From IMG/VR virus record IMGVR_UViG_2737471846_000007: DNA of 4,791 bases; one strand, written 5' to 3'. The stretch comes from a virus. Taxonomy: Duplodnaviria; Heunggongvirae; Uroviricota; Caudoviricetes. Made by a program: the position numbers and the translations under genes. The notes below the pieces were generated by a model, which saw nothing but the letters and a program-made list of their open reading frames with translations, was not told the origin of the DNA and ran no database searches. This document shows positions 872-1,583 of this stretch, piece by piece (position 1 is the first letter of the stretch; the number at the start of each line of letters is the position of its first letter).

Positions 872-1429
872 TCATGCAGCCTCCCGACGGGCAAGAATCC
901 TTGAGCCGAACGCCATCAACTCTCCACGATCAACGGTCGTAAAGTGGCAGTGTGTACGGGGGTATGGGTGCCAGATAATGAGCATCGAGCCTTTATTATT
1001 TCCACTGACGGGTTTCTCAGTGAGTGGGTTAATAAATGCCAGTCGTCCTGCCGTGATGAATCTGACCTCACTGGCGGTTTGTATCGCTTCATGAAACCAT
1101 CCGACAGATGTGTCAGCAGGCAATAACATTACACATCCCACACTACTGAATTTGTTTTCAGTGGCTGCCTTTTTCACAAAAGGGGAAATATTGCTGTATG
1201 GTGGATTCAACCAGACATAACCAGAGGCATATCCCATTGCTTCAGGCCATGAAGTGGTTAATGTGTTCTGCTCCTGTGAGATAAAAAGCCGACATAGTCG
1301 GTTTTTTTCGCTGGCGGCAGCATCAAGTTGAAAAACGAACTCTGCATGAAGCGCAGCAAAAATCTCTGGTGGTGTGCGCCAGCTGTCGCGATGTTCGGCA
1401 GGAGTATTGCTTCCGGTGAAATCAGTCAT
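872..1429 (-). CDS. Phage-type DNA N6-adenine methyltransferase (Dam family, ~185 aa)
   Basis: Protein contains the N6-adenine MTase catalytic motif IV NPPY (VWLNPPYSNI) in an N-terminal position typical of small phage Dam-like enzymes; GGGGG SD-like run upstream of ATG 1429-1427; stop TGA 874-872. Confidence 0.85.
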   Translation of the reverse strand: MTDFTGSNTPAEHRDSWRTPPEIFAALHAEFVFQLDAAASEKNRLCRLFISQEQNTLTTSWPEAMGYASGYVWLNPPYSNISPFVKKAATENKFSSVGCVMLLPADTSVGWFHEAIQTASEVRFITAGRLAFINPLTEKPVSGNNKGSMLIIWHPYPRTHCHFTTVDRGELMAFGSRILARREAA

Positions 1430-1583
1430 ACAGCCCCCGTTTATTATTTATCTCCTCAGCCAGCCGCTGTGCTTTCAGGGGATTTCGGATAACAGAAAGG
1501 CCGGGAAATACCCAGCCTCGCTTTGTAACGGAGTAGACGAAAGTGATCGTGCCTACCCGGATATTATCGTGAGGATGCTTCAT
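1422..1583 (-). CDS. Small coupled ORF (53 aa) in the position of lambda orf60a
   Basis: ATG at 1583-1581 overlaps exo stop TGA (1582-1580) as ATGA; GGGGAG SD 8-9 nt upstream; stop TGA at 1424-1422 lies inside the first codons of the methyltransferase gene. Translation [53 protein letters not shown]. Below the ORF-track size cutoff. Confidence 0.5.

Follow-up and report, generated by a model that had tools for sequence, protein, structure and literature searches.

The window analyzed here, that is, the whole stretch of 4,791 nucleotides (nt) from the IMG/VR virus record IMGVR_UViG_2737471846_000007 (Caudoviricetes), carries on its minus strand the gene run of a typical lambdoid early-left operon: Dam, a small open reading frame (ORF), exo, bet, and gam. 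The small ORF (1422..1583) is the subject of this analysis. It comprises 53 codons and a stop (162 nt), is present in the ORF list, and is matched by the profiles of Pfam family PF07026 (DUF1317) and PHROGs family phrog_1998, to which lambda orf60a belongs. The upstream gene is exo (Red-alpha; 1580..2260), identified from its YqaJ domain (PF09588, E-value 7.8e-30) and from existing annotations and encoding a lambda-type exonuclease of 226 amino acids (aa); it is preceded by bet (2257..3042) and gam (3048..3344). The downstream gene (872..1429) encodes a phage N6-adenine DNA methyltransferase Dam of 185 aa, recognized by its match to PF05869 (E-value 3e-56) and by the name assigned by the Prokaryotic Genome Annotation Pipeline (PGAP).

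The minus strand around the start of the small ORF reads TTTGGGGAGCAATGGCGATGAAGC. The ATGA tetranucleotide at 1580..1583 is common to the small-ORF start codon and the exo stop codon (TGA, 1582-1580), as it is in lambda, and a GGGGAG Shine-Dalgarno (SD) sequence lies within the 3' end of exo (1592..1597). The frame extends over 1422..1589, yielding 55 aa (MAMKHP...; the two additional codons occupy 1584..1589) from an ATG at 1589 or 53 aa from the ATG at 1583. The latter is the better start, because GGGGAG is separated from it by 8 nt and from the ATG at 1589 by only 2 nt. At the other end, where the minus strand reads ACGGGGGCTGTATGACTGA, the small ORF and Dam overlap by 8 nt, ATGACTGA (1422..1429); this octamer contains both the Dam start codon (1429-1427) and the small-ORF stop (TGA, 1424-1422), which begins 5 nt past the first base of the Dam ATG. 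As the alignment indicates, a GGGGG run at 1434..1438 (codons 49-51), followed by the 4-nt spacer CTGT, is the SD sequence for Dam. Codons 1-50 (1434..1583) form the conserved core of the gene, as delimited by alignments, the AlphaFold2 model, and the Pfam and PHROG profiles. A preliminary description of this DNA, based on manual translation, had proposed a minus-strand ORF with an ATGA overlap at the exo stop, the GGGGAG sequence, and a stop codon 5 nt inside the methyltransferase ORF, and all of these are found in the sequence. It had also called the ORF unannotated, which applies to the first-stage ORF track only: that track has a size cutoff, as the description had supposed, with a default of 60 aa, and public records annotate the 162-nt coding sequence. 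A real, annotated gene for 53 aa was thus missed through a size cutoff, and manual reading recovered it correctly.

The family identity of the small ORF is near certain. PF07026 is matched with an E-value of 2.8e-33 and a score of 114 bits (gathering score 22.3), profile positions 1-50 of 60 being aligned to residues 3-52 of the 55-aa form, and phrog_1998 (function unknown) is matched with an E-value of 1.2e-32; scores of this strength mean that the ORF is more than a chance frame. Searching 5.8 billion proteins yielded 117 homologs; all contain PF07026, and most are named 'DUF1317 family protein'. The preliminary description had placed the start of the small ORF where orf60a begins on the lambda map, and the two do coincide: lambda orf60a (NC_001416, 31169..31351; lambdap39, NP_040615) shares with the window gene the ATGA overlap with exo and the internal 't1' hairpin, and through codon 50 it aligns base for base, with approximately 98% DNA identity over codons 1-50 and two amino acid differences (K2T and T12A). 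The protein vb_24B_9c of phage Phi24B belongs to the same family and its gene also directly follows exo with an ATGA overlap. Beyond codon 50 the genes differ: the window form is 53 aa long, ends in LYD, and is followed by Dam with the 8-nt overlap, whereas the lambda form is 60 aa long, ends in AVCTKHLLLS, and is followed by orf63 with a 28-nt overlap.

The same arrangement has already been annotated elsewhere. In E. coli 90-3040, whose sequence matches the window at every one of the 241 bases compared (1300-1540), PGAP calls a 162-nt coding sequence ('DUF1317 family protein', WP_000682319.1) that overlaps exo by 4 nt and the gene for 'phage N-6-adenine-methyltransferase' by 8 nt, which are the length and both overlaps of the window; this protein is also encoded in other prophages of Shiga toxin-producing E. 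coli. Phage PhiR30_1, 97.3% identical to the window over 1300-1750, has the same gene with the same length and overlaps, annotated as 'orf60a' (XSB42250). DUF1317 DNA occurs in 3288 of 5426 complete E. coli genomes, and the particular junction with Dam in 244 of them. Judged by these matches, the window gene is the known and routinely annotated lambda orf60a / DUF1317 small protein gene, an ordinary find.

By its pattern of substitutions, the small-ORF frame is under purifying selection. The window gene was compared, using the Nei-Gojobori method, with homologs at 35 loci from other Enterobacterales genera (including Klebsiella, Enterobacter, Raoultella, Leclercia, Citrobacter, Kosakonia, and Serratia), whose products share 45-80% amino acid identity with the window protein. 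The proportion of synonymous differences (pS) is 0.67-0.87, which is near saturation, that of nonsynonymous differences (pN) is 0.12-0.39, and the ratio of the corresponding rates (dN/dS) is 0.07-0.28 where dS could be computed. Conservation of the frame in related phages, on which the preliminary description had made its proposal depend, is therefore observed. Column entropies summed over the alignment are 36, 28, and 60 for the first, second, and third codon positions, respectively, the third being about twice as variable as the other two. Residues M1, I8, V10, W24, P27, NPLKAQR (34-40), A42, and E43 are invariant in an alignment of 20 sequences, and the window protein has all residues of the family core (D6, I8, V10, G23-W24, P27, NPLKAQR 34-40, and A42-E43). 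Survey hits L005-L021, which are 96% identical to the query over residues 1-50, come from assemblies of Shewanella, Bradyrhizobium, Paenibacillus, Kitasatospora, Chromatium, and other unrelated taxa, several of them on low-coverage contigs of ~48 kb; they most likely represent contamination with lambda DNA, and were for this reason left out of the dN/dS analysis. In addition, many database DUF1317 proteins (P0058, P0071, P0065, P0056, P0029, and others) retain the sequence from about residue 11 onward (GAITFVYS...) behind unrelated N-termini, one such variant, MNVIGAITF..., being represented by a cluster of 481 sequences. The pattern suggests that, where exo is replaced, another junction recurs within the 5' end of the gene or that starts there have been miscalled.

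Overlap with the neighboring genes at both ends is typical of the family rather than a local accident. Our survey covered 294 full-length DUF1317-family loci from genome and IMG/VR collections; an IMG/VR scan with hits ranked on the first query gave only close E. coli relatives, and further scans with queries of the Enterobacter and Klebsiella types broadened the sample. The upstream ORF overlaps the small-ORF start by 4 nt at 191 loci, by 8 nt at 40, and by 1 nt at 38 (together 269 loci, ~91%). For the downstream gene, the overlap of its start with the small-ORF stop is 4 nt at 176 loci, 28 nt at 74, and 8 nt at 23, and overlaps of 4, 28, 8, 11, or 23 nt account together for 279 loci (~95%). 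Throughout the family the SD sequence of the next gene (AGGAGG or GGGGG) is found in the last codons of the small ORF. The tight overlap at both ends, from which real translation had been argued, is therefore a property of most of the family.

This geometry would allow ribosomes terminating on exo to reinitiate at the ATGA, aided by the GGGGAG sequence 8 nt upstream, and ribosomes leaving the small ORF, which stop 5-8 nt past the Dam ATG, could reinitiate there in turn. Exo, the small protein, and Dam would then be made together early after induction. RNA structure sequestering either of the two starts was not found in the window beyond shuffled controls (z-scores of +1.34 at the small-ORF start with its SD sequence and +0.47 at the other start), and so any coupling would operate by termination-reinitiation or proximity rather than by unmasking of a hairpin. 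An Rfam search gave no match at the small-ORF locus, the only match in the window being the cIII thermoregulator described below.

Similarity to lambda and to Shiga toxin (Stx) phages ends abruptly at the downstream start codon. Megablast matches to these phages stop at query position 128, corresponding to the final G of the Dam ATG (window position 1427). The stretch ...AATAATAAACGGG(n)GGCTGTATG is common to all E. coli-type variants, which diverge immediately past this ATG, the start codon of the next gene. The shared ATG opens Dam in the window and a queuine-tRNA-ribosyltransferase-like gene in SfI, and in both lambda and phage 2851 it opens orf63. The mosaic junction, which had been suspected somewhere in this region, is accordingly assigned by sequence comparison to the Dam start codon (1427-1429), i.e., to the extreme 3' end of the small ORF and not to its interior. 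It provides a base-resolved example of lambdoid mosaicism, with the recombination joint at the start codon of the next gene.

The tail of the small protein is set at this joint. The distant homologs linked to Dam (Leclercia, Citrobacter, and Raoultella) have a 4-nt ATGA overlap at the end of the small ORF. In E. coli-type variants with GGGGAGCTGTATGA the tail is GAV* and the overlap 4 nt (four loci), and in those with GGGGGCTGTATGACTGA the tail is GLYD* and the overlap 8 nt (22 loci, including the window, and a protein cluster of 416 members). The G-run of the window, GGGGG, lacks one base relative to the GGGGAG or GAGGGG of the sister variants. Because of this the window ORF reads two codons further, to the TGA in ACTGA; the Dam sequence ATGACTGA contains a TGA in both alternative frames. 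The last three codons are not lambda-like for the same reason, since the 1-nt difference shifts the frame ahead of the junction. Lambda keeps the original frame, but its orf63 starts with ATGC, so that no ATGA stop is formed and the ORF extends over the first 28 nt of orf63, acquiring the tail AVCTKHLLLS. A single-base change in the G-run and the identity of the incoming gene thus decide whether the protein ends in AV, LYD, or AVCTKHLLLS. The residues beyond position 50 are therefore by-products of the junction, in agreement with the Pfam and PHROG matches, which end at residue 50, and with the low confidence of the structural model for the last three residues. The lengths of the small protein over the 294 loci are distributed accordingly, with 50 aa at 95 loci, 52 aa at 93, 53 aa at 25, and 60 aa at 76. 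A database protein of 85 aa (P0015) is an in-frame read-through from DUF1317 into Dam via another indel in the region of the G-run and junction.

The AlphaFold2 model, built from an alignment of 24 sequences, has a mean predicted local distance difference test score (pLDDT) of 88.5 (53 for the last block) and consists of strands at residues 8-10, 13-18, and 23-25 and a helix at residues 35-52. The predicted fold is that of a three-stranded antiparallel sheet with one packed helix, as in the AP2 and integrase arm-binding types; among three-stranded beta-sheet DNA-binding domains, the candidate counterparts are the AP2/ERF GCC-box domain, the arm-binding N-terminal domains of lambda Int and HPI Int, and the N-terminal domain of Tn916 Int. 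A Foldseek search of the PDB with the model gave no match with an E-value below 6, and any matches from a profile search against PDB sequences had E-values of 0.86 or higher, so that no solved relative was identified in the PDB. Donaldson and colleagues had proposed that Orf60a resembles beta-sheet DNA-binding domains (PMC8614690, which also contains a docking model for DNA binding), and the fold predicted by AlphaFold2 would agree with this independent proposal. The product may be a small module of beta-sheet and helix, possibly DNA-binding. Deletion of orf60a increases lysogenization and host survival and delays induction, strongly in Phi24B and weakly in lambda (PMC6213356); a frameshift in orf60a abolishes the effect of a plasmid-borne exo-xis region on spontaneous induction (PMC4195576); and orf60a is non-essential in lambda, as judged by CRISPR interference (PMC10695390). 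By analogy with the published deletions in lambda and Phi24B, the window protein might tip the choice between lysis and lysogeny slightly in favor of lysis. We read it best as a small regulatory protein of the early phase, possibly DNA-binding and mildly pro-lytic, a mechanism with only moderate support.

Some likeness exists to the C proteins of restriction-modification systems, in that a small and possibly DNA-binding protein is encoded directly upstream of, and overlapping, a gene related to DNA modification. C proteins, however, are helix-turn-helix proteins that usually precede an endonuclease gene and autoregulate from C-boxes, whereas DUF1317 has a predicted sheet and helix, precedes orphan methyltransferases of many families, and lies inside the long pL operon, so that this is an analogy only. 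Membership in the C-protein family was rejected, as the model has three strands and one long helix and no helix-turn-helix Pfam match was obtained.

Taken together, the locus is best explained as a genuine early-left (pL operon) gene for a 53-aa DUF1317 / Orf60a-family protein, a reading we consider very probable. Real translation, as the preliminary description had claimed, is supported by purifying selection, by the phenotypes of orf60a frameshift and deletion (PMC4195576; PMC6213356), and by a review (PMC8614690) according to which the lambda exo-xis ORFs were confirmed in ribosome profiling. Three points weigh on the other side. The published orf60a phenotypes are mild in lambda and reveal no mechanism; translation in this particular prophage is argued from sequence, the lambda ribosome profiling (Liu et al., 2013) being cited second-hand; and the proposed coupling is deduced from geometry, while both genes have SD sequences of their own and could initiate independently. 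As to the exact product, the 55-aa form from the in-frame ATG at 1589 appears in the curated RefSeq records of SfI and phage 2851, and the MAM extension is present in database clusters such as P0005 and P0011; we nevertheless regard it as improbable, given the unfavorable 2-nt spacing from GGGGAG, Pfam and PHROG profiles that start at the second ATG (1583), distant homologs that align from the ATG of the ATGA and do not conserve the earlier in-frame ATG in their upstream sequences, and the PGAP start at 1583 in E. coli 90-3040. The shortness of the ORF, its position at a mosaic junction, and a C-terminus departing from that of lambda by a 1-nt indel might suggest a chance frame or a decayed, functionless remnant at a recombination scar. 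This is hardly credible for a gene whose 50-residue core is intact, conserved throughout the family, and under purifying selection, whose length of 53 aa is within the family norm (the extended form being the 60 aa of lambda), and whose GLYD variant is recurrent; a chance ORF was rejected as contradicted by the 117 homologs, the selection, and the length distribution. It is also very unlikely that the ORF serves only as a translational relay from exo to Dam, with a functionless peptide. Such a relay would account for overlaps that are nearly universal at both ends, for the SD sequence and ATG of the next gene embedded in the last codons, and for a tail that varies freely (LYD, AV, EAA, VAA, or AVCTKHLLLS). 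A pure relay, though, would not keep its amino acid sequence across genera: only the tail of 0-10 residues is free, and the first 50 residues, with their low dN/dS at saturated synonymous sites, invariant positions including NPLKAQR, and confidently predicted fold, are constrained strongly enough for an ORF with an irrelevant peptide to be rejected.

The window gene occupies the usual position of the family, on the same strand and right after the last gene of the recombination/anti-RecBCD module, with its start overlapping the stop of that gene. The gene upstream of DUF1317 varies among loci (exo, SSB, Abc2, Gp157, or PerC-like). The gene downstream, whose start overlaps the DUF1317 stop, was surveyed in 202 non-redundant combinations of DUF1317 and the next gene from Enterobacterales prophages, the counts being made irrespective of phylogeny. 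It encodes Dam (PF05869) in 38 combinations, MT-A70 in 34, orf63 / DUF1382 in 29, a C5 cytosine methylase, often fused to a D12 adenine methylase, in 25, an ASCH-like protein (weak Pfam match) in nine, PD-(D/E)XK in eight, an N6_N4 methylase in seven, a phrog_954 DNA methyltransferase, a DndB-like protein, and a queuine-tRNA-ribosyltransferase-like protein (phrog_887) in five each, a fusion of 3'-phosphoadenosine 5'-phosphosulfate (PAPS) reductase with Dam and PAPS reductase itself in two each, a phrog_757 DNA methyltransferase and D12 alone in one each, and other categories in the remaining 31. A DNA methyltransferase is therefore the next gene in approximately 114 of the 202 combinations (~56%), representing at least six Pfam or PHROG groups; DndB-like, queuine-tRNA-ribosyltransferase-like, or PAPS-reductase genes add 12 (~6%), bringing all kinds of DNA modification to ~62%. 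The lambda arrangement, with orf63 after DUF1317, is a minority case. An identical 27-nt 3' end of DUF1317, TATCGGGAAAGGCAGGAGGCGGCATGA, precedes at least eight unrelated gene families (L037, L038, L040, L050, L143, L146, and L188), which diverge from the base after ATGA; this is an unusually sharp mosaic joint, reused at the start codon. At one locus (L254:3156-3626), the downstream gene has a Dam-like start (MTDYGGSKTPKNER) followed by NUMOD4 and HNH_3 domains, and from its sequence looks like a homing-endonuclease insertion or fusion in a methyltransferase gene.

Two readings of this context go beyond mere position. DUF1317 could be a functional companion of phage DNA-modification enzymes, acting as a DNA-binding cofactor, a regulator, or an expression gate, as the high share of methyltransferases from several groups, and a link to the downstream gene that persists while the upstream gene varies, might be taken to indicate. 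We think this unlikely. Nearly identical DUF1317 proteins precede at least eight unrelated downstream families, which speaks against a specific interaction between partner proteins; in lambda and most Stx phages the downstream gene is orf63, and the Dam junction is confined to a small part of the E. coli genomes that contain DUF1317 DNA; lambda orf60a has a phenotype in the absence of any phage methyltransferase; and, as the sampling ignores phylogeny, conserved gene order of the lambdoid early operon could explain the pattern. A somewhat broader proposal, still doubtful, is that DUF1317 represents the fixed front half of a two-gene early cassette, the second position being a hypervariable DNA-modification slot, and that the small protein acts with or gates whichever enzyme is plugged in. 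If this were true, DUF1317 might, for example, target or time the modification of replicating phage DNA, and its conserved 3' end (SD sequence and ATGA) would be a shared docking joint for cassette exchange. Since nearly identical DUF1317 proteins precede unrelated enzymes, we favor a positional explanation, in which a hypervariable slot for early DNA modification is bordered by a conserved flank with a shared joint; that the proteins are specific partners seems less likely, though some general functional link may exist. This synteny was not described in any paper that we found on searching the literature for DUF1317 or exo-xis in combination with methyltransferase, and the link of the family to a swappable DNA-modification slot is the only element of the present analysis that may be new. 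The survey provides a testable lead on the function of a family that has seen a decade of phenotype work.

Several other features of the window were noted. A terminator scan identified a terminator-like hairpin inside the small ORF (1497..1519, minus strand), with a T-rich tail, a minimum free energy of -18.5 kcal/mol, and a z-score of -2.98; the terminator 't1' predicted for lambda and Phi24B (PMC4195576, Table 4) has exactly this sequence. In Enterobacter-type homologs the same segment is less stable (mean of -14.5 vs. -19.2 kcal/mol). Another terminator-like hairpin, AGGGAGCTACAGGCTCCTT with a T run behind it (541-559, minus strand), lies between orf61-like and TraR-like genes and closely resembles the predicted 't2' of lambda and Phi24B (PMC4195576), one base being different in the T-rich tail. 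The Rfam family Lambda_thermo (RF01804, cIII thermoregulator) is matched at 3651-3709 (minus strand) with 88.5 bits (gathering score 50), as expected for a lambda-like cIII leader. Finally, an ORF of 104 aa with a TTG start (580-894, minus strand) overlaps the 3' end of Dam; homologs and PGAP favor a shorter, 71-aa orf61-like protein starting from MTPQQENALRS within it, and orf61-like genes directly follow DUF1317 at some loci (L023 and L047).

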